IMG/VR virus record: IMGVR_UViG_3300045988_038165
Location: 1 to 47,169 of that record
Length of the DNA: 47,169 bases
Strand: one strand, 5' to 3'
Source: a virus
Shown here in pieces: positions 5,729-47,169 of the stretch. Numbering within the stretch: position 1 is the stretch's first letter; every line of letters begins with the position of its first letter. The notes beneath the pieces were generated by a model. The model worked only from the letters and a program-made list of their open reading frames with translations, was not told the DNA's origin and ran no database searches. The translations under genes were made by a program, and so were the position numbers.

Positions 5729-5775
5729 GAGAGGATATTCCCCTCTTTTTTACTCCATTCACAAAGGTTAATTTC

Positions 5776-5873
5776 GTATTAAAGATTAAAGTTTTGCTTT
5801 GTGTTTTAAATTTAATCTTTATATTTGCAGAGTCAAAAGGAAACAAAGTACTAACAATTTAAAAACAACAATT
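5776..5873 (+). promoter_or_regulatory. Promoter-leader cassette, copy B (-7 box TAtaTTTG 5820..5827)
   Basis: TTAAAGATTAAAGTTTTGCTTTGTGTTTTAAA...TATATTTGCAGAGTCAAAAGGAAACAAAGTACTAACAATTTAAAAACAACAATT-ATG. Confidence 0.65.
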
Positions 5874-6074
5874 ATGGTTATAAAAACAAGGTTTAACGTT
5901 GGCGAAGAAGTGATGTACGGTGCACATAAAGAGCCGTTCAGAGTATTCTCCATTGAGATTCACGTAGGTAAAAAGGATAAGAACGTAACTTATCTCGTTC
6001 AGAGTCAATACGGTTTTATTCGTAGAGTGAGAGAAAATGATCTAATTAAATATCAGGTTAAAAATAACAAATAA
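5874..6074 (+). CDS. Hypothetical small protein (66 aa)
   Basis: ATG directly after the conserved leader. The track start 5799 runs through the promoter. Confidence 0.55.
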   Translation: MVIKTRFNVGEEVMYGAHKEPFRVFSIEIHVGKKDKNVTYLVQSQYGFIRRVRENDLIKYQVKNNK

Positions 6075-15501: not shown

Positions 15502-15898
15502 CGGACAGTTGCAGATGTACATGGGTGAGTTAAACGAATTTGCTAAACTGCACAAAGGAAAGAATATCATAGCAAGTTTTAGCGTTTACGAGCCTACGCA
15601 GTCGGTCGCCATGAAAGCATATTACTACAAAGTGGTAGTACCACAGTTTCAGAAAGGAATGTACGACAATGGCAACAGGTGGAGCGAGAAAGATACCGAA
15701 TTGTACATGCGGAACTTGTGTCCGGTAACAATGGGTGAGGTTGTGGATATTGAAACGGGTGAGTATCGGAGTGACCCGGTAAGTATCAACGACTTATCAA
15801 ATAGTGAGTTTGTAGAATATATTGATTTTTTAAAACAGTTTGCAGCCGAGGAACTGGGAATATTCATAGAGGATGCAACAAAATACGTAAAGAAATGA
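15458..15898 (+). CDS. Hypothetical protein, weakly NinB-like (start uncertain; an alternative in-frame ATG lies about 60 nt downstream, roughly 15515-15520, where the product reads MYMGELNEF)
   Basis: C-terminal LSNSEFVEYIDFLKQFAAEELGIFIED resembles the end of lambda NinB as I recall it. This is weak evidence. Confidence 0.3.
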   Translation: MKQNRITIPGKVTSNGQLQMYMGELNEFAKLHKGKNIIASFSVYEPTQSVAMKAYYYKVVVPQFQKGMYDNGNRWSEKDTELYMRNLCPVTMGEVVDIETGEYRSDPVSINDLSNSEFVEYIDFLKQFAAEELGIFIEDATKYVKK

Positions 15899-16221
15899 AA
15901 GAAGTTAGAGTAGAAGATTGCGAAATGACATTGAGAGAAAAATTTGATTTGATGTGCGAGGCTCTTTCGGTGTCACCGGATGCTATTTTAAGCCGGGAGA
16001 TTACGAGAGATATTTCAATTAGAAGAAACTGTATTATTCATCAGTTGTATGATTATCGTTTGGACGGTTTGCCGGAGCTATTGGATAGGACGAGGGCTTT
16101 AATAGTGATAGCGCACCGCAAATTTCAAAACCGGTTGGAGGTTAACGATCCGTTGGCTGTTGAATACAAGCGATTAGTTGATGAAAGATTGGAGAGTTAT
16201 TTGAATGGCGAAGAAGAATAA
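15895..16221 (+). CDS. Hypothetical protein (108 aa)
   Basis: ATGA overlap with the upstream stop. Confidence 0.5.
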   Translation: MKEVRVEDCEMTLREKFDLMCEALSVSPDAILSREITRDISIRRNCIIHQLYDYRLDGLPELLDRTRALIVIAHRKFQNRLEVNDPLAVEYKRLVDERLESYLNGEEE

Positions 16222-16375
16222 ACAAAACTTAGTCCTCGTTCATTGTACAGAATGTAAATATAGCTCTGATCATCATAATTTGATATGCTATTGCAGTAAG
16301 AGAAAAAAAAAGTTATGCAGTTGCCCGAATATCGGAAGGGTATGCGAACATTATAAACCTAAAAACGAATATTAA
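16205..16375 (+). CDS. Small Cys-rich protein (56 aa, below the track cutoff)
   Basis: MAKKNKQNLVLVHCTECKYSSDHHNLICYCSKRKKKLCSCPNIGRVCEHYKPKNEY fills an otherwise empty gap. Its stop is 1 nt before ATG 16377. Confidence 0.4.
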   Translation: MAKKNKQNLVLVHCTECKYSSDHHNLICYCSKRKKKLCSCPNIGRVCEHYKPKNEY

Positions 16376-16376
16376 T

Positions 16377-17000
16377 ATGTTGTACGACAATTTCGAATTA
16401 AAGAGAGTAAGATTCATTCCAAACGGTTTGGAGGTAGATTACAATGATTGTATGAATGTTGACGGTGAGGCGGTTAAAACGTTTCATAAAGTGAAAAAAC
16501 CGGAGTATCCTCACCCTGATTTGCCGAACGTAGCTGGAAAATTGAGAGGGTATATCGTCCGGCTTATGGGTCTGATGAATTTTGAAAACATCACCTACTT
16601 ATCCGATCTTTCAAAACAGGATAAGGAGTTGGGTAAGCAGTTTCAAGACTTCTTTGAAATACAGTCTACTCGAATTCTGATTAGAGAGATTGTGAGAGAT
16701 GAAGAAAAGAACACAGTAATTATCAAATACGAGTTTACAGGTACAGACTTGTCGCTGTTTAAAATGCAGACTCCTAAAATCAATTTGAAGGGTGAAATAC
16801 TTAAATTTGAGATTGACATGGATGCTGATTTGGAAGGTATGAAGCACGAAATATTTGATTATCTGTTTAAGGGGAAGCGTGCGCAACTTTCAATGTTCGG
16901 TGAGATAGCAGAAGCCGATGACATAAAAGACGCTGAGGATGATTCGGAGGGTGATTCCTTCTTTGACGAAGAAACTGAAAGCGATGTACCTGCTGAATAG
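16377..17000 (+). CDS. Hypothetical protein with a highly acidic C-tail
   Basis: 207 aa, ending EIAEADDIKDAEDDSEGDSFFDEETESDVPAE. Confidence 0.55.
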   Translation: MLYDNFELKRVRFIPNGLEVDYNDCMNVDGEAVKTFHKVKKPEYPHPDLPNVAGKLRGYIVRLMGLMNFENITYLSDLSKQDKELGKQFQDFFEIQSTRILIREIVRDEEKNTVIIKYEFTGTDLSLFKMQTPKINLKGEILKFEIDMDADLEGMKHEIFDYLFKGKRAQLSMFGEIAEADDIKDAEDDSEGDSFFDEETESDVPAE

Positions 17001-18128: not shown

Positions 18129-18160
18129 AGGGATACTCTAAAGCAGGGTATCCCTTCTTT
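18129..18160 (+). terminator. Hairpin terminator
   Basis: AGGGATAC (18129..18136) / GTATCCCT (18148..18155) followed by TCTTT. Confidence 0.6.
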
Positions 18161-18269
18161 GTGTTAAATAAGTGTTAAAGATTAAAGTTTTGCTTTGTGT
18201 TCCAAAAGTTATGCTTATATTTGCAATGTCAAAAGGAAACAAAGTAGTAACAATTTAAAAACAACAATT
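18161..18269 (+). promoter_or_regulatory. Promoter-leader cassette, copy D (-7 box TAtaTTTG 18216..18223)
   Basis: 109 nt, 105/109 identical to 32103..32211. Contains the TTAAAGTTTTG -33-like element and the conserved leader GTCAAAAGGAAACAAAGTAGTAACAATTTAAAAACAACAATT-ATG. Confidence 0.7.
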
Positions 18270-18677
18270 ATGAAAAAGAAATTCGAACTAACAGAAAACT
18301 ATGTAGTAAACGAGTGTGGAACAAAGTTGTATCAAGTCAGATGTATTAAGACATTCAAGTATGCAGTAAAAGGAGAACTTGGAGGATACATCGAAAAAGA
18401 AGAAAACCTAAGTCAAGAAGGCAATGCTTGGGTGTACGGCAATGCCCAGGTGTACGGCAATGCCCAGGTGTACGGCAATGCCCAGGTGTACGGCAATGCT
18501 AAGGTGTACGACGATGCACTGGTGTCTGGCAACGCGTTGGTATCTGGTAATGCGTGGGTGTACGACAATGCCCAGGTGTACGACAATGCCCAGGTGTGCG
18601 GCAATGCCCAGGTGTACGGCAATGCCCAGGTGTACGGCAATGCACTGGTGTCTGGTGATACTAAGGTATGCAAATAA
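18270..18677 (+). CDS. Hexapeptide-repeat protein (135 aa)
   Basis: ATG at the end of the leader. The C-terminal 84 residues are 14 consecutive [GD]-[ND]-A-x-V-[YSC] hexapeptides. Confidence 0.7.
   Translation: MKKKFELTENYVVNECGTKLYQVRCIKTFKYAVKGELGGYIEKEENLSQEGNAWVYGNAQVYGNAQVYGNAQVYGNAKVYDDALVSGNALVSGNAWVYDNAQVYDNAQVCGNAQVYGNAQVYGNALVSGDTKVCK
18420..18671 (+). repeat. 14 tandem 18-nt repeats (consensus GGCAATGCCCAGGTGTAC)
   Basis: Read directly. Five units are identical to the consensus; the others differ at 1-6 positions. Confidence 0.95.
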
Positions 18678-32102: not shown

Positions 32103-32211
32103 GTGTTAAATAAGTGTTAAAGATTAAAGTTTTGCTTTGTGTTTTAAAAGTTATGCTTATATTTGCAATGTCAAAAGGAAACAAAGTACTAACAATTAAA
32201 AAACAACAATT
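32103..32211 (+). promoter_or_regulatory. Promoter-leader cassette, copy E (-7 box TAtaTTTG 32158..32165)
   Basis: 105/109 identical to the early cassette at 18161..18269. Confidence 0.7.
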
Positions 32212-32394
32212 ATGAAAACAGATTTATTTAGTCAGAGAACAATTGAAAAATTTATTATGATTGAATTTGTTAAGGGTAACATGGATACTAAAGAGCAGGT
32301 AGATAGCATGATAGAATTAGTTCAAAGAAAATTAGACTTTTCATATAACGAAACATGTGACTTTATAAGGAACGCTATCGGTATAAACGCTTAA
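32212..32394 (+). CDS. Hypothetical small protein (60 aa), first gene of the accessory island
   Basis: ATG at the end of the conserved leader. Confidence 0.5.
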   Translation: MKTDLFSQRTIEKFIMIEFVKGNMDTKEQVDSMIELVQRKLDFSYNETCDFIRNAIGINA

Positions 32395-33149: not shown

Positions 33150-33983
33150 ATGGAAAAGAAAGTAAATAGCACAGGGATGTATGAAACAACGTATTCTGGT
33201 GATGTATTCGTAGGTAAATTATCCACGCCTACAAAGATAGGTTTAACAGACCAAACGAAAGTAGCTCTTTTGGAGTATCTGACAGAGAGTGACGATTTTC
33301 ACAAACTGGTATGCGATATAACCGGAACTGAAAGAAAGCAGGTGAAAGTCTCCCAGGAACTTGAAAAGCTGAAAGAGGACTATTCGTATGTATGTGATAG
33401 ATATAAGAAGGAACAACAGAAAAGCAATTATTTGCTTAACAAATGGAGGAAAGAAACGGCAAGGAGATTGGAAGCTGAAAAAGAAAGAGATAATGCGGAA
33501 AGGCATCATAAGTTTATAGTTGATGAAATATTCTCAATGCTGAAAGAAGTTGAGTGTGGCTCTGTGAGAGGTATCGTAGATGAATTGAAGGCTGAGAGAA
33601 CAAACGGAAAATTGTTGGCGGAGGAAAACGAGATGTGCAGACGGGAGAATGACAAACTAAAGCTAAACTATGATAAGGTATGCAAGGAAAAGGAAAAATC
33701 GGAAAAGGTAAAGTATGAAACAGAAAAGAAGTACAATACAGACTTTGAGTATCTCAATAAATGCAATCAGAATCAAGCAAAGACCATTACTAACCAAATG
33801 AACGACATTTTGAGTCTGAGGAACGAACTTATCGAAGTAAGAACGGAACTTGCAGAACAGAAAGAGTTAGCTAAAAAGTATATGGCTAAATCTGAGAAAC
33901 TGCAATCAAAGTTGGATAAAGCCTCAAAACGTTATGGTGAATTGATTAAGCTAATCAGTGATAAAGCTATCAAGTCTATTTAA
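33150..33983 (+). CDS. Coiled-coil protein (277 aa)
   Basis: A globular N-terminal region of about 60 aa is followed by long heptad-like charged helices. No motif recognised. Confidence 0.55.
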   Translation: MEKKVNSTGMYETTYSGDVFVGKLSTPTKIGLTDQTKVALLEYLTESDDFHKLVCDITGTERKQVKVSQELEKLKEDYSYVCDRYKKEQQKSNYLLNKWRKETARRLEAEKERDNAERHHKFIVDEIFSMLKEVECGSVRGIVDELKAERTNGKLLAEENEMCRRENDKLKLNYDKVCKEKEKSEKVKYETEKKYNTDFEYLNKCNQNQAKTITNQMNDILSLRNELIEVRTELAEQKELAKKYMAKSEKLQSKLDKASKRYGELIKLISDKAIKSI

Positions 33984-34029
33984 TATAAACAGTCCGGTGT
34001 GAAAGCCGGACTTAAAAAGGAGGTTAAAA

Positions 34030-34272
34030 ATGCGTAGATTATCTATGTCAGACAAAGGTTTGCTTATTCCGGAAGAAGGGGAAATATTTTTTGCGGAAGT
34101 ACCAAATAAGGGGATAGATCGAAAAGTGAAAACACTGGTATCGAAAGACAAAAATCGATGCGAGAATTGTGTTTTTTATAATGGTGAACTCGGTGAATTG
34201 TGTTGGAGGGTGATGTGTCTTGAAGAAGGTGTACAATATACATTTAAGAGGGTGAGCGATGGGGAGATTTAA
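34030..34272 (+). CDS. Cys4 mini-protein, paralogue 1 (80 aa)
   Basis: RCENCVFYNGELGELCWRVMC has the spacing C-x2-C-x10-C-x4-C. Confidence 0.55.
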   Translation: MRRLSMSDKGLLIPEEGEIFFAEVPNKGIDRKVKTLVSKDKNRCENCVFYNGELGELCWRVMCLEEGVQYTFKRVSDGEI

Positions 34273-34477
34273 AAGCGTAGAACTATATGACACATTCATA
34301 ATAGATCACCCTGTAACAGGGGAAACAATCAGAGTGCAAGCGATGGAAGGCAACAATGTAATATCATGCAGAGAATGCCTATTTAGGCAAAAGGAGTTTA
34401 AAAAGATATGCCCGCTTATGCGATGTGTAGACATGGCTACGGGAAAGTGTCAAACCTATAAACAAGTAAAGTTATGA
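34259..34477 (+). CDS. Cys4 mini-protein, paralogue 2 (72 aa)
   Basis: SCRECLFRQKEFKKICPLMRC has the same C-x2-C-x10-C-x4-C spacing. Confidence 0.55.
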   Translation: MGRFKSVELYDTFIIDHPVTGETIRVQAMEGNNVISCRECLFRQKEFKKICPLMRCVDMATGKCQTYKQVKL

Positions 34478-34760
34478 AAAGATTAGATTTATCATGTCTA
34501 CCGTTAAATTTAGAGGTAGGCGAAAAGTTTGAGTTAATAGATAACGACGGCAAGTACCATTTATTGAAGTGTGTTATGCCAGATAAAAAAAATCGTGTAA
34601 AGGGTGCTTCTTTACTAAAACAAAAATACCATTTAACTGCGATTCTGTGATGTGCACAGAACTAGAAAGAGGCGTGAAAAGTGGTGAAGTGATATACATA
34701 GAACTTCCGGTAAAGAATGAATTTAAGCAAGACGAAGAAAGCAAAGATGATGTTTATTGA
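34474..34760 (+). CDS. Cys4 mini-protein, paralogue 3, split by a -1 frame change in an A8 tract (34585..34592)
   Basis: Frame 0 (ATG 34474, ATGA overlap) stops at 34650 without any Cys motif. The -1 frame after the A8 tract reads SCKGCFFTKTKIPFNCDSVMC (C-x2-C-x10-C-x4-C) and ends at TGA 34758..34760. Confidence 0.6.
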
Positions 34761-34870
34761 GAGGAATTAACTTAAACCAATGGTTACTTTTGGTAAGTAT
34801 AGTACTTACTTTTAGTAACTATTAAAGCGAAAGTTTAAAAATTAAAGTTTTAATATAATAGTGTTGACTT

Positions 34871-35705: not shown

Positions 35706-35960
35706 ATGAAGTATAATAGCGTATTACCACCGTTTGAAACGGTTGATATTATCAAGTATAATGGTGTAGAGTCTTTGCAGAGTTTTACCGATGCAGTCGC
35801 TATCCTTTCGGAGTCTGAAAACATGGGAACGTATGAAGTTAACGGAAGACTTATGCAGTGTTACAAGGGTGATTGTCTGATCAAGGAGGCAAAAGGGCAC
35901 ATCTATTGCCTCGATGCTGATGCGGTATCGATTATATTTGAGAAAGGAGGTGAGGAATGA
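35706..35960 (+). CDS. Hypothetical protein (84 aa)
   Basis: ATG 35706, in frame with the track ORF 35682. ATGA overlap with the next gene. Confidence 0.45.
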   Translation: MKYNSVLPPFETVDIIKYNGVESLQSFTDAVAILSESENMGTYEVNGRLMQCYKGDCLIKEAKGHIYCLDADAVSIIFEKGGEE

Positions 35961-36697
35961 AAGTAGGACAGCATGAAGTGGAGTTGTATGAAGGCATTGA
36001 CTCGCTGCCTATTGCGAGGTATCAAAAGTTCAATCGGTTGATGTTGGTTGATTCCGGTGTAGGCTCTACTATTGAGGAACTGGACACCCATCTGAGGCGG
36101 GCTATCCTGTACTGCAAGACTAACGCCGATCACACGTACACCGAACTGCTAAACCTTAGGCAGTCGTTTCACATGGCAACGAACGGCATTCATCCGGGCA
36201 TGATTGCCTTCGGTGCGTTCGTCAAGTCATTGGATGGGAAAGAGTATCCCGTACACATAACTGACGAGCAATTGCAGGAAATACACACCATTCTATCAGA
36301 TGTAACCGTTTCGGAGCTGTCAGAGGCAAACGAGGCGGTCAAAAAAAAAATAGAGGGTGAGATGTCGATGTACTTCCCGACAATGGGTGACAGTCCTCAG
36401 ATTAAGGAGTACTACGATCTGAAATTGCAGCTACTAACCGCAATGTTAGATCAAACAGCGAACGGGATAGACCGGAAAGATGAAATACAGTCGTTGACCG
36501 ATCAATTAACGGTATTCTATCCGCCTCGCTGCTTTCAAGGCGAGAAATCGGTAGAGATACAGTCAGATAAGGAGTTTACGGAGATGTGTTTACTTATAAC
36601 GAAGGAAATGCACATAAACGCAAAGGACATGACAGTATTTGATTTCTACTCAGCATTCGAGATGATTAAAAGACAAAGTAAAAAAGCTAAAAAGTAA
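35957..36697 (+). CDS. Tail assembly chaperone candidate (by position, helical)
   Basis: 246 aa, directly upstream of the tape measure gene. Contains an A10 tract at 36341..36350. Confidence 0.4.
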   Translation: MKVGQHEVELYEGIDSLPIARYQKFNRLMLVDSGVGSTIEELDTHLRRAILYCKTNADHTYTELLNLRQSFHMATNGIHPGMIAFGAFVKSLDGKEYPVHITDEQLQEIHTILSDVTVSELSEANEAVKKKIEGEMSMYFPTMGDSPQIKEYYDLKLQLLTAMLDQTANGIDRKDEIQSLTDQLTVFYPPRCFQGEKSVEIQSDKEFTEMCLLITKEMHINAKDMTVFDFYSAFEMIKRQSKKAKK

Positions 36698-42002: not shown

Positions 42003-42017
42003 TAGGGGGTATTTTCG

Positions 42018-42025
42018 TATATTTG
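42018..42025 (+). promoter_or_regulatory. -7 box TAtaTTTG
   Basis: 25 nt upstream of ATG 42050. Confidence 0.45.
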
Positions 42026-42049
42026 CTAAATAATTAAATTTTTATAAAC

Positions 42050-45000
42050 ATGAATACATTCAACAACTTTAGTCCATTGGCTTTCAGAGAGAAAAGCATG
42101 AAGGCTACGTATAAAAAATGGTACGCTTATGGTAAAGAGTTCGCTTTGCCGTTTAGTACAACCGAATTACCACCGTTTCAGTTTACAGTTGCCAATCTGC
42201 CATCATTTGACCCTACTACGGTAGAGGTATCCCTCGTGGATGAAGCAACCGGAACGAGAGTCGCAACTGGTGTCAAAATAAAGGTTGATACGATGGACGA
42301 ACATAACTCAGTTTTATACGTATCACCCGGGAGCAATGTGTATGCTAAATCAATAGAGCCGGGTGTATATCGAGCCGAGTTTACTATACCCGAAGGTAAA
42401 ACATACGTATCTACACCGATATGCGTAACCGAAGGCATAGAAACTAATACCAACTTCGTTAAATTGGAGTACTGGAATGATGAAAAGTTGGCTTATCCTA
42501 ATGGTTTTATAACCACTGGTACGGATAATGATTTCAAGTTTCAGATGTATATCCCGACTACCTTCTTTAAACCGAAATACGAGTTCGAAGAAGAGATAAC
42601 AAAGAGAGCAGGCTATAAGTTTCTCGAATTGCAGACTTGCAACAAGGTGTTCGGTTTTAACTTCCTCGCACCGGAGTACATTTGCGATGCGCTTCGTTTA
42701 GTGCGTCTATCTGACTATATCCGTTTCGCCCATGACGGTGAGTATTACAACGCTCTGAACTTTGAGTACGCCCCCGATTGGCAGGATAACGGATATTTGG
42801 CTGCAATCGAATGCCAGTTTGAGACAGATACGATCATTCAGAAACTCCCTTCTTTCAACCGGAGAGATATAGAGTCTTTTTATAATGCCCTACTCGCTGA
42901 CATAGACACTCCAATTCTGTTTAGTCCGGACGTAGTAGGGCTGTATTACCGTGAATATAGACAGGGAGAGCCGACGATCAAAGGTAAATTGATCCGTGAG
43001 TTATCACCGATTGATCTGATAGACGAAAATACTACTATTGCCGTGGATATGGGTGCTGGTGAGGCACGCAAATTCAACCTTTACCGCATGTTGGAGGGGT
43101 ATATCTCAAAGAATCACGAAGATGTAACGGAGTTCCTTTTGTCCCTACGTGGAGGTGCTAATATAGGTACACCTAACACAAGCGGTGAGTACCCTGCAAG
43201 CGTAGACAGGGACGGGAACACTAAGTTAAAGGACATACAGGGGAATGATGCAACGTTGAATAAGGTCACAGGAAAAGATGCTACGTTTAAAACTGTGGAA
43301 ACTGGTTTTTTAACTGTTAACAAGACTTCCGCAATAATTGACGGAATGGGTAATGCCAATGTAACCGATTTAACTGCAAGGGGTGACTCTATGTTGCGCA
43401 GTGACGTGTATACAGGGTCAAAAGACGGCAATCATACCGGAAAGATTACGAAAGAAGGACAGTTGCAGTATCTTTCAGCCATCATTTACGAGTTCCTTTC
43501 GTCTGAAACGTTTGTTCCCGGCTTCTTGGGTGAGGGCTTCAAAATATGGTTGGAAAACGGTAACTGGCATATCGAATGCGATAACCTAACCGTCCGTCAA
43601 ACTATGAACGTCTTTGAGTTGCTTATTCAAAAGATACGTAGCGTCAATGGTGCTATTGTCGTATCCCAATCAAACGGAAAGGTTACAGCCGTTGAGGACA
43701 CCGGAACTCAGTACAAAATCACGTTCGGAGAGGAATTTCCTACCTTTCAAGAGGGTGACTTGATACGCTGCCAATCGTGGAGTAAGAATAACCTTAAATT
43801 CTATTGGGTAGAGGTAAAGACAGCCGCAGACGGTTATATTCTTTGCGATAAGTCTGAGTTTAACAACGTTGTTCCGGCTGTCGGTGATGAAGTTGTTCAG
43901 ATGGGGAACACGAAGAATGCAGAACGGCAAGCGTTGATTTACATCACAGCGCAGGAAAGCGGTAAACCGTACATTGAGATTCTGAACGGTGTCAAGACAA
44001 AGAGTCTGGCCGGGACAGACCGCACCCGTCTTGGCGATCTGTCTAACATTGTAGACCCCGATTTCACAGGTGAGGCGGCTGTTAAAGGAACTGGTTTCTA
44101 CTCTACTAATGCCTTCTTAAAGGGTATCTTTGTGTTGCGCAACGGAAAGCGTGTAGAGGACGAGATTAAGATTGCAAAGGACGCAGCCGATCAAGCGGCA
44201 CAGGACGCAGCGAACGCAGCGCAATCGGCACAGGAAGCGAAAGACAGGCTTAATAAATGGGCTGATGATGGCTTTATCTCACCGACTGAGAAACCTGCAT
44301 TGATTGACGAGGGAAAGAGGATACGGGCAGAACATCTTAGTATTTTAGCTGATGCGAGTAAGTATGGAGTATCTGCAACTGTATATACACAAGCATATAA
44401 CGACTATTTAGGTCAATTGCAATACCACTCAGCACCGACACCGGAAAATATTGTAGTTCTTGAAGGTCTTGCCGCATCTCAGACTACATACTATAATCAG
44501 CGTAATCTAATTCTGAGCGCAATTGCCGATGCAGCTAAGGCATACGTAGACGAAGCTGATAAGAAACTGAAAGAGTACTTAGATACGGAAATTACAGCTA
44601 TTCCCGGTAAGATTGAACTTGCTGTACGTAGCTTAAAAGTATCAGATGTTAACTTATTGAAAGGTGCATATAAGGAGTTGAAAAACGCTAACTATGGTTT
44701 CGGTGCTTATTCATACGATGTACCACTTGTAAATGGTAAGGAATACATGTTGACAGTATGCTATACCTTATCGGCAAATAACACACATATTGAAGCATAC
44801 GCAAATAGAGGTGCTAACCGTCTTGCAAATTTTACTACTAAGGGTGATAAGGTTATTGAAAGCAAAAAGGTTACTATGGCAGGATATACACCTTCTTATG
44901 GACTTTGGTTCTATCAGTTTCCTGGTGGTACATACGGATCAAAAGTACATTGGGCTGTTTTGACTGATGGCAATTTAGGCGTAACCAGTTGGATACCTTC

Positions 45001-47169
45001 TGCAAGTGAGAAGAACGTAGGACTTAGAAACTTGTGCTCTTTTAAGCGTATCACTGATGCTGGTTTTACGTATTTAGAAAATTATGAAGATGATGGGAGT
45101 TTTTATGTTGCTCCCGGAAAACTCAACGAAGAAACGAATTTAGCGAATAAGGATATGTTTGGATTAACCTATGATCCTCAAAAGCAATATTACATATTTA
45201 TAGATTCAGCTATTAGATCAGATACTAATTTGGATAAATCGAGTACGTTTTTTATAATTAAATATACCGATGGAACTGAGCAAAGTGTATGTATTGTATA
45301 TCCTAATAAAATAGATTACAATTATATTATAACGCAAAAGCCTATTTCTAAAATAGTCGGCTCTTATGGTAATGGATATGGTTCAACTCTGAGGATCGGT
45401 GTTTATGAAACAAGCTTTCCTGTTTCATGGAGTCCCGCACCCGAAGATCAGTTATATCAATCTGTTAAGTACACAGACACTCAAATTTTGGCAGTTGATG
45501 GTAAAATAGAACTTTCCGTCACCACTAAAGTTAATCAAATAGGCGTCGGGGGTGATAATTTAGTGAGATATTATTCTGACACACTTCTTTCTTATTACGT
45601 GTATAGTTCAACTCCAATCGTAAAAGACGGATACGCATTTGAAACCACTTGGAGTAGTTCTAATACAGCAGGTGTTTTATCTGTGACAAATCAAAGGATA
45701 GGACAAGGTGAAATACCTAATTTTTGTTATAGATTTAGAATGCTAATAAATGGAGTTCCAGCGACTGAAGATAGAATTGCAGATAAAAGACTAACCACAT
45801 ACGCAGCGAGTGGGGAAATGTATTATGATGGAGACGGGAATTTCTATGGATTCGTAAAAGGGAATACAGGCGGTTGGTTTATTCATGTACCAACAACAGG
45901 TATGAAAGGCGGTGATGTTATTAGAATAGAGAATTTCATTGTAGCAAAAGGTACTGTATGTCCCGGTTTTTCCCCTTCTTCTGCTGATATTAGCTTTCTT
46001 AACGAAAGGTTCACGCAATCAAAGATTAATATTGTTGAAGGTAAGATAACCACAACCGTTGAACAGATAAATACCGTTGATGGACGTGTTACCGGACTTG
46101 CCTCACGTGTTACCCAGACTGAAAGTAGTATTAATTCTGTTGTTGGAGACATTAACACATTGAATAATACTACCGAAAGGAAGGTAACAAAACGAATAGA
46201 CTTAACAGGGTGGGATAACAATAAATTCTATCCGTTAGCTATCGGACTGAAACAGAATCGTAAGAACAAAATAATGATATATCGTCCTTTAGATGGAGCT
46301 TACGGTACACCTTCATACGGTACGCATACGAATGGTTTTTCTATGGGACTAACATTTGAGATGTCTGGTTCTGGCTGGGGGAGTTCGCCCGTTATTATTA
46401 ATATATTTGATTATTATAAATCATGGACTGCCGCGGGTGCAAAAATCGTGGTAGATTTAAGTCAGCTTACTAACTCTTCTGAATGTGTTATGGGTATTCG
46501 AGGTGGGTCTAAGTATGATGTAACGATATATGATATGACAGACCCGAACGACATCAATGTGTTTAACGCTGACTATACCTCTCAATACGGTCAAGTGTAT
46601 CCAGTTCGCACAGATGGTACAGAGCCAGTTCGCACATACGGCTATTACACGGAGATTAAACAAGAACGTGATAGAATAACCGCAACTGCTGCAAAGGTAG
46701 ACGATCAGGGCAACAGATTGAGTGCGGCTGAGATTAAACTTGATTCCACAAGCGTTAAACTTGGTGTTGTTGAAGGTACTGCAAACAGTGCAAATACTGC
46801 CGCAGGCAATGCACAAAGTACCGCTAATGCAGCTAACAGTTTGGCAAGCACAGCCAAGAGCAAAGCGGAAGCCGCAGACGGACGCGTCACAGCCACGCAA
46901 AACGGACTTGTCGAAACCGGGATAAACATTACTTCCCACAAAATAGTTTTGAAGTCTGATAACGTCCTCTTTCAGAACAACGCAGGACAGCAAACGGCAG
47001 CTTTGAACGCAGATGGTCGGTTGACTGCCAACGTGATTGAGGCTGGTGAGGTTGTTGCTAATGGCTTTGCTGCACAGCGAATCACAACCGGAAACCTTAC
47101 GGTAACTGATGGTGCAAAGATCGGTGCCTGGAATATATCGGGAGGCTCTCTTGTTTCGGCAAGCAATTC
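42050..47169 (+). CDS. Tail fibre / host-specificity protein, N-terminal 5.1 kb (open to the window end; continues at 1..636; 1,888 codons in total)
   Basis: I translated the frame starting at ATG 42050 by eye and found no stop before the window end. The track omits it because it has no stop within the linear window. Only short antisense or off-frame ORFs are listed here. Confidence 0.85.
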   Translation, partial: MNTFNNFSPLAFREKSMKATYKKWYAYGKEFALPFSTTELPPFQFTVANLPSFDPTTVEVSLVDEATGTRVATGVKIKVDTMDEHNSVLYVSPGSNVYAKSIEPGVYRAEFTIPEGKTYVSTPICVTEGIETNTNFVKLEYWNDEKLAYPNGFITTGTDNDFKFQMYIPTTFFKPKYEFEEEITKRAGYKFLELQTCNKVFGFNFLAPEYICDALRLVRLSDYIRFAHDGEYYNALNFEYAPDWQDNGYLAAIECQFETDTIIQKLPSFNRRDIESFYNALLADIDTPILFSPDVVGLYYREYRQGEPTIKGKLIRELSPIDLIDENTTIAVDMGAGEARKFNLYRMLEGYISKNHEDVTEFLLSLRGGANIGTPNTSGEYPASVDRDGNTKLKDIQGNDATLNKVTGKDATFKTVETGFLTVNKTSAIIDGMGNANVTDLTARGDSMLRSDVYTGSKDGNHTGKITKEGQLQYLSAIIYEFLSSETFVPGFLGEGFKIWLENGNWHIECDNLTVRQTMNVFELLIQKIRSVNGAIVVSQSNGKVTAVEDTGTQYKITFGEEFPTFQEGDLIRCQSWSKNNLKFYWVEVKTAADGYILCDKSEFNNVVPAVGDEVVQMGNTKNAERQALIYITAQESGKPYIEILNGVKTKSLAGTDRTRLGDLSNIVDPDFTGEAAVKGTGFYSTNAFLKGIFVLRNGKRVEDEIKIAKDAADQAAQDAANAAQSAQEAKDRLNKWADDGFISPTEKPALIDEGKRIRAEHLSILADASKYGVSATVYTQAYNDYLGQLQYHSAPTPENIVVLEGLAASQTTYYNQRNLILSAIADAAKAYVDEADKKLKEYLDTEITAIPGKIELAVRSLKVSDVNLLKGAYKELKNANYGFGAYSYDVPLVNGKEYMLTVCYTLSANNTHIEAYANRGANRLANFTTKGDKVIESKKVTMAGYTPSYGLWFYQFPGGTYGSKVHWAVLTDGNLGVTSWIPSASEKNVGLRNLCSFKRITDAGFTYLENYEDDGSFYVAPGKLNEETNLANKDMFGLTYDPQKQYYIFIDSAIRSDTNLDKSSTFFIIKYTDGTEQSVCIVYPNKIDYNYIITQKPISKIVGSYGNGYGSTLRIGVYETSFPVSWSPAPEDQLYQSVKYTDTQILAVDGKIELSVTTKVNQIGVGGDNLVRYYSDTLLSYYVYSSTPIVKDGYAFETTWSSSNTAGVLSVTNQRIGQGEIPNFCYRFRMLINGVPATEDRIADKRLTTYAASGEMYYDGDGNFYGFVKGNTGGWFIHVPTTGMKGGDVIRIENFIVAKGTVCPGFSPSSADISFLNERFTQSKINIVEGKITTTVEQINTVDGRVTGLASRVTQTESSINSVVGDINTLNNTTERKVTKRIDLTGWDNNKFYPLAIGLKQNRKNKIMIYRPLDGAYGTPSYGTHTNGFSMGLTFEMSGSGWGSSPVIINIFDYYKSWTAAGAKIVVDLSQLTNSSECVMGIRGGSKYDVTIYDMTDPNDINVFNADYTSQYGQVYPVRTDGTEPVRTYGYYTEIKQERDRITATAAKVDDQGNRLSAAEIKLDSTSVKLGVVEGTANSANTAAGNAQSTANAANSLASTAKSKAEAADGRVTATQNGLVETGINITSHKIVLKSDNVLFQNNAGQQTAALNADGRLTANVIEAGEVVANGFAAQRITTGNLTVTDGAKIGAWNISGGSLVSASN
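47081..47169. repeat. Terminal overlap: exact copy of 1..89
   Basis: 89/89 identical to the window start. Confidence 0.95.

Follow-up and report, generated by a model that had tools for sequence, protein, structure and literature searches.

Programmed -1 ribosomal frameshifting, as in dnaX and in the phage tail-assembly chaperone genes G/GT, uses a slippery stretch of lysine codons within a conserved two-frame architecture, is accompanied by a stimulatory element, and leaves a defined shorter isoform beside the frameshifted product. Dispensable phage genes ("morons") also occur as frameshift alleles, in which single +/-1 homopolymer indels arise recurrently and independently while intact orthologues persist. 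Genes disrupted at A or T runs can be restored at the mRNA level by an extra A, as described for IS elements and "authentic frameshifts" (PMC1088944) and for Citrobacter tssM, whose slippage-rescued run is A11 (PMC4256274). Coding sequences in many genomes typically show selection against A/T runs from nine nucleotides upward (Baranov et al., PMC1088944). Hypermutable polyG tracts were described in Campylobacter phage genes (Sorensen et al. 2021, Cell Rep 35:109214, as cited in PMC10877375). Here, a small gene of a Bacteroides phage that is one base short at an A run was compared with these systems.

The window, meaning the whole stretch of 47,169 nt that was analysed (IMG/VR record IMGVR_UViG_3300045988_038165), is a 47-kb genome with 39% GC and nearly all genes on one strand, and it is a B40-8/B124-14-like Bacteroides fragilis siphophage. 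No tRNA genes were found anywhere in the window. Its last ~5 kb (42003-46721) holds few plus-strand ORFs, with gaps of 1.2-1.8 kb and only short ORFs on the minus strand. A sequence of 110-130 nt is present in three copies with 89-95% identity (5767-5876, 18149-18279, and 32119-32250); it carries Bacteroides-type promoter motifs (TTTG ... TATATTTG, i.e., TAnnTTTG) and a common leader with an ATG at its end (..AACAATTATG), and it looks like a repeated promoter/5'-UTR cassette heading three transcription units.

The gene under study belongs to a cassette of Cys4 mini-genes in the tail module, which lies between a tail protein gene and the tape-measure gene and adjoins an Ant-like anti-repressor; this position is that of a typical accessory-gene island. 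A 3-kb segment spanning the cassette is matched by 24 Bacteroides phage records with 68-93% identity, and related phages carry 2-6 such mini-genes in tandem, the copy number being variable. The mini-genes go unmentioned in the B124-14 genome paper, and neither a primary paper nor the sequencing platform was found in the literature for the OP1726xx isolates. The features of the cassette in the window are as follows.

34030..34272, plus strand: ORF of gene 1, an intact 80-aa Cys4 mini-protein (CENCVFYNGELGELCWRVMC; C-x2-C-x10-C-x4-C)
34259..34477, plus strand: ORF of gene 2, an intact 72-aa Cys4 mini-protein (CRECLFRQKEFKKICPLMRC)
34474..34650, plus strand: ORF of gene 3 in frame 0, 58 aa, without a Cys motif (protein P0056)
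34585..34592, plus strand: A8 tract, the site of the one-base deficit in gene 3
34587..34760, plus strand: downstream part of gene 3 in the -1 frame (KKSCKGCFF...DDVY), open, with its stop TGA at 34758-60
34596..34655, plus strand: codons of the gene 3 Cys4 motif (CKGCFFTKTKIPFNCDSVMC), in the -1 frame
34650..34760, plus strand: 36-aa ORF (P0170), called by gene finders in the broken allele
34782..34819, neither strand in particular: imperfect palindrome GGTTACTTTTGGTAAGTATAGTACTTACTTTTAGTAAC just 3' of the cassette, read from the sequence

A first-pass annotation of this DNA had described three overlapping small ORFs with a Cys4 signature at identical spacing, and all of its coordinates and translations were correct when re-derived. 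Genes 1 and 2 overlap by 14 nt, and the stop of gene 2 and the start of gene 3 share ATGA. Translation confirmed that frame 0 of gene 3 runs from 34474 to 34650 with no Cys motif and that the signature lies in the -1 frame; the frame-0 product comprises the conserved N-terminal 38 residues followed by 20 out-of-frame residues up to the stop at 34648-50. The -1 frame is closed upstream by the TAA at 34584-86 and is thereafter open to the TGA at 34758-60, encoding ..SCKGCFFTKTKIPFNCDSVMC.., again as described. This downstream part keeps all the family-invariant residues in the alignment and is 88% identical to the intact 95-aa protein P0001. One extra A at the A8 tract does give a 95-aa protein, and A9 is not the sole one-base repair: the natural in-frame alleles read A8-TT (KKNSC), A8-GT (KKKSC), and A5CA3-T (KNKSC). 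The ATG of the 36-aa ORF overlaps the frame-0 TGA (TGATG); this overlap is probably incidental, because that Met belongs to the conserved VMC motif. What public records list as a 58-aa and a 36-aa ORF are the halves of a single broken gene.

The palindrome at 34782-34819 is preceded by the conserved GAATTAACTTAA, occurs at the same place in L001-L037, and is kept in all relatives. It marks the 3' boundary of the variable region and may be a terminator or a recombination boundary. On the other side of the cassette, a GC-rich hairpin (GTCCGG-TGTGAAA-GCCGGAC, 33993-34016) lies between the 277-aa gene and gene 1, and it is terminator-like without a T run. In BK649P1 (L005, 1833-2188), the homologue of the 119-aa gene that follows the cassette aligns as two pieces in different frames, with a frameshift or a replaced N-terminus as possible causes.

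When 109 proteins of the three groups of paralogues are aligned, the residues C42, C45, F47, C56, and C61 are invariant (C-x2-C-x-F-x8-C-x4-C), and the Cys residues are also invariant in a 59-sequence alignment of gene 3; the residues lost from the frame-0 product are these invariant ones. Profile-profile comparisons aligned the paralogues in register (E = 3e-6 for genes 1 and 2, 2e-4 for genes 1 and 3, and 1e-3 for genes 2 and 3), and by these alignments the common Cys4 signature is not a matter of chance. A 5.8-billion-protein set held 62 clusters of homologues of repaired gene 3, 29 of gene 2, and 64 of gene 1. Gene 2 is the most conserved paralogue, with 83-99% identity across relatives. 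Clustered at 50% identity, 1.84 billion proteins yielded just 35 representatives of the whole family. Neither Pfam nor PHROG had a significant match to the three proteins or to more distant or longer members, searching the PDB with a sequence profile returned no hits, and no relative was present in 185,579 species-representative bacterial and archaeal genomes. By the reach of these searches, the Cys4 proteins are a small, orphan, phage-restricted, and undescribed family of ~70-100 aa.

An AlphaFold2 model from the gene 3 alignment alone was unusable (pLDDT 54), and one from the three-paralogue alignment was of moderate quality (pLDDT 69.7). In the latter, N-terminal strands and a C-terminal strand form a small sheet with the Cys segment between them; the family fold would thus comprise an N-terminal beta-hairpin region, the C-x2-C-x-F-x8-C-x4-C segment, and a C-terminal strand. 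Foldseek found no match to this model in the PDB (best E = 0.3, TM about 0.2), and its matches in BFVD were the family's own members. The proteins presumably bind zinc. They resemble small Cys4 zinc-ribbon and zinc-knuckle proteins in having two invariant Cys pairs (C-x2-C ... C-x4-C) within 70-100 aa. They differ from them in having no Pfam, PHROG, or PDB match in sequence or fold, and, unlike in zinc-ribbon proteins, the Cys segment is predicted to be inserted between N- and C-terminal beta-strands (pLDDT ~70).

The cassette varies in its modules as well as in its copy number. Its variants include two-module fusions of 165-176 aa and the in-register gene 1/gene 2 chimeras P0090 and P0091. 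Among the chimeric mini-proteins P0090, P0091, P0084, and P0087 are an N-domain of gene 1 joined in register to a Cys motif of gene 2, a gene 1/gene 2 deletion hybrid, and gene 2 Cys motifs with foreign N-termini; they indicate module shuffling between paralogues. In L042 (940-1773, P0173), the upstream 277-aa coiled-coil gene, which is at 33150-33983 in the window, is fused in frame to a gene 1-type Cys4 module that replaces the coiled-coil C-terminus. Tandem duplication, fusion of modules, recombination in register, and repeated frameshifts at homopolymers shape the evolution of the family, a pattern that is typical of genes engaged with the host. From the position, copy-number variation, and recombination pattern, all of which suggest it, we infer a role in host interaction.

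The alleles closest to that of the window differ at the A tract. The segment from GAT to CGTGT is 10 nt long in every in-frame allele and 9 nt in both broken alleles.

L039: A5CA3T, 10 nt, intact (KNKS)
L018: A8GT, 10 nt, intact (KKKS)
L012-17: A8TT, 10 nt, intact (KKNS)
L001: A5TAGTT, 10 nt, intact
Window, L009, and L042/43: A8T, 9 nt, broken
L010/11 (SRR19633725/SRR19633700): A7GT, 9 nt, broken

A single deletion would turn A8-GT, A8-TT, or a hypothetical A9-T into the allele of the window. The downstream frame of the broken alleles shows few substitutions (~6 in 175 nt), and the alleles are mutually mosaic. The site itself is not conserved: most orthologues are a single in-frame ORF without the tract (BF486P1, BK649P1, vB_BfrS_23, and UZM3, for example, are intact), and ~58 of the 62 gene 3 protein clusters are full-length. 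AAA makes up 55% of the Lys codons and AAA-AAA 12 of the 63 Lys-Lys dicodons, where a share of ~20-30% is expected from AAA usage. Thus, Lys codon usage leaves the A tract in need of no special explanation. An exact-pattern scan of metagenome contigs had L038 as its sole match, which was unrelated and due to chance, and a scan of IMG/VR with a gapped tract pattern gave no matches.

A single base missing at a homopolymer is the classic signature of a sequencing or assembly error, and the first-pass annotation had listed such an error, with gene 3 really intact in the phage, among its explanations. Against this, the identical A8-T junction, and with it the 58-aa product P0056, is present on at least six contigs from four source collections (JGI/IMG, Logan, ENA, and NCBI nr). 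One of them, L009, matches the window over 6.2 kb with 100% identity. A variant with two N-terminal substitutions and an identical out-of-frame tail (P0155) comes from another project (ERR1301182 and ERR1301120). Its DNA (L042/L043) has the exact A8-T junction in flanks only 92-96% identical to the window, and its gene 3 ends in a different, two-module 3' part, the -1 frame being open for ~130 codons in L042. The related A7-GT break occurs in two further runs (SRR19633725/SRR19633700). Neither of the repaired proteins of the window allele (..DKKKSC.. and ..DKKNSC..) was among ~15 billion proteins, so that no intact version of this allele is on record, and an A10 run (36341-36350) and several T8 runs of the window are in frame within intact ORFs. 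Because the junction recurs, also in a diverged background, no repaired protein was found, and the A10 and T8 runs are in frame, a sequencing error is very unlikely and can be considered effectively excluded. The break is real and recurrent, and it should not be "corrected" as a sequencing error in annotation.

The A10 run lies in the gene of a 246-aa virion structural protein (35957-36697), directly ahead of the tape-measure gene. Its length exceeds the usual threshold for slippage, each of the two other frames meets a stop just past the run, and truncated products could result. An A9 run (16303-16311) between the ORFs at 15895-16221 and 16377-17000 appears intergenic and breaks no gene.

Gene 3 is also broken independently at other sites.

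BF698P1: one T short (T5, not T6) in the C-F-F codons; 73 contigs carry the intact T6 allele (P0020)
L041: T5 instead of T6
L036: T7, of opposite sign
BF695P2/P3: a G lost after T6; a metagenome contig (P0156) has this lesion too
L040: one A short (A6, not A7) in the Cys2-Cys3 loop
BF698P3 and L041: frameshifted C-terminal tail

In gene 1, too, there are alleles with one extra T (P0151 and P0154). Break rates were compared at unbiased loci, that is, isolates and IMG/VR records collected regardless of the state of the gene. Gene 3 was frame-broken at 4 of 26 such loci, the five neighbouring genes in 1 of 104 gene-locus pairs (Fisher p = 0.006; ~0.03 after identical alleles were collapsed), and gene 2 at none of 23.

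We think that gene 3 of the window is probably a natural, heritable frameshift allele of a dispensable, fast-recombining accessory gene, the product of which is truncated and lacks the Cys4 core. Intact orthologues exist, invariant residues are lost, and the lesion is in the genome rather than in the assembly, as it is seen on multiple contigs, in multiple sources, and in multiple backgrounds. The first-pass interpretation holds as far as it described paralogous Cys4 mini-genes, the third of which needs a -1 shift or one base; it had left the simplest option off its list, and this option, a heritable frameshift polymorphism in a dispensable accessory gene, is the best supported. In AT-rich coding sequence, Lys-Lys (AAA AAA) and Phe-Phe (TTT TTT) pairs would create homopolymers that act as hot spots of replication slippage, and a one-base deletion at or beside the A8 run would have yielded the present allele. 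If gene 3 is dispensable, possibly through redundancy with its paralogues, +/-1 alleles could arise repeatedly and persist. The family forms a tandem cassette in the tail-gene module, beside the Ant-like anti-repressor, that varies from 2 to 6 copies and includes fusions and chimeras. The main product would be the 58-aa truncated peptide without the four invariant Cys, which would make the allele null; should non-programmed slippage on A8 now and then restore the frame, it would still be no more than a weak hypomorph. Both the dispensability of gene 3 and the absence of a functional full-length product are what we infer from this pattern.

Some observations run counter to this reading. The broken alleles are all "young", each with a single lesion, an open downstream frame, and the conserved residues kept, and no heavily decayed copies of gene 3 were seen among them. 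About half of the A-tract-bearing haplotypes are broken, and the broken haplotype has endured in different projects and genomic backgrounds. Young, persistent broken alleles also fit reversible switching or the use of the downstream frame by slippage. Six of the seven gene 3 lesions, moreover, need the same -1 correction, a shared sign to which a deletion bias at homopolymers would likewise lead.

Slippage of this kind would give a useful level of full-length protein from the A8 allele and leave gene 3 functional or down-tuned rather than dead, which we consider quite unlikely; the route would be either RNA-polymerase slippage inserting an A or -1 ribosomal frameshifting on A_AAA_AAU or U_AAA_AAA. 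A -1 shift at A8 gives ..DKKK/NSCKGC.., the peptide of the natural in-frame alleles, and three genomic backgrounds keep the downstream frame intact. In the zero frame, GAU AAA AAA AAU holds both A_AAA_AAU (34587-34593) and U_AAA_AAA, a slippery heptamer that is a weak indication by itself. However, the site and a two-frame architecture are not conserved, sister alleles with this tract are in frame, other alleles are broken at sites ill suited to shifting (T5 and the deleted G), and the T7 allele needs the opposite shift. Nor does the structure downstream point to a stimulatory element: the fold of the next 87 nt has -15.4 kcal/mol (z = -0.68 against shuffles), and 49 of 200 shuffles fold as well. 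Since Shine-Dalgarno pairing plays little part in Bacteroidota, a dnaX-like upstream stimulator is unlikely. A hairpin after the tract (GUAAAG..CUUUAC) was rejected as a stimulator, as it encodes the conserved CKGCFFT motif, occurs in in-frame alleles, and is outside the minimum-free-energy fold. Genes disrupted at A/T runs are restorable at the mRNA level (PMC1088944; tssM with A11, PMC4256274), but A8 is shorter than the run of ~9 A/T or more expected for programmed transcriptional slippage, and selection against slippage typically sets in at 9 nt (PMC1088944). Programmed slippage, ribosomal or transcriptional, which the first-pass annotation had proposed, is thus not upheld. Low-level, non-programmed slippage on A8 is biochemically plausible, and nothing shows its use.

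Phase-variable expression, also proposed earlier, would make gene 3 a phage contingency locus, whose homopolymers switch the gene ON and OFF reversibly by replication slippage and keep populations mixed; we rate this as unlikely, if with an appreciable chance. The protein might, for example, help on some Bacteroides hosts and be harmful on others, or be sensed by a host defence. Close alleles do show the length polymorphism of a frame-toggling homopolymer (A7-GT/A8-GT, A8-T/A8-TT, and T5/T6/T7). The broken alleles have one lesion each and are otherwise intact, as expected of revertible alleles, the broken haplotype persists in several genomic backgrounds, gene 3 is broken far more often than its neighbours, and a precedent is cited in PMC10877375, the hypermutable polyG tracts of Campylobacter phage genes. 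On the other hand, no sign of selection maintaining the tract was found: the tracts are short (5-8 nt) and absent from most alleles, their positions differ between lineages, and codon usage accounts for them (~20-30% expected from Lys codons). The BF695P2/P3 lesion is moreover a deleted G beside a tract, with no change of tract length. A broader version, in which the Cys4 cassette is an arms-race module and gene 3 its contingency gene, flipped OFF and ON by its A/T runs or read through low-level A8 slippage, is distinctly unlikely. The cassette would then act against host defences, for example, or be sensed by them, and a phage population would always contain both states. If the ON/OFF states were reversible or host-dependent, homopolymer phase variation in phages would extend beyond the Campylobacter polyG tracts to abundant human-gut Bacteroides phages.

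Compared with the described systems, gene 3 shares with dnaX and G/GT a slippery stretch of lysine codons and the -1 requirement. It differs from them in having no conserved two-frame architecture or stimulatory element, and its frame-0 product would be a truncated fold rather than a defined shorter isoform. As in transcriptional-slippage rescue of IS elements and "authentic frameshifts" (PMC1088944) and of tssM (PMC4256274), an extra A in the mRNA would restore the ORF; unlike in those cases, the run is A8, not 9-11 or longer, and is not conserved among orthologues. Like the Campylobacter phage tracts, as cited in PMC10877375, the runs of gene 3 are homopolymers inside phage ORFs whose length varies between genomes and toggles the frame, whereas they differ from polyG in being short A/T runs (5-8 nt) that are not conserved and lie in a small protein. 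The closest likeness of the heritable frameshift allele that we favour is to frameshift alleles in dispensable phage "moron" genes. Gene 3 departs from these in having no decayed copies and a persistent haplotype, which makes it somewhat more orderly than plain decay. With them it shares the single +/-1 homopolymer indel, the intact orthologues, the recurrent independent lesions, and a place in a hyperplastic accessory region that adjoins an Ant-like gene; on the present evidence, this is a natural frameshift polymorphism of an ordinary kind.
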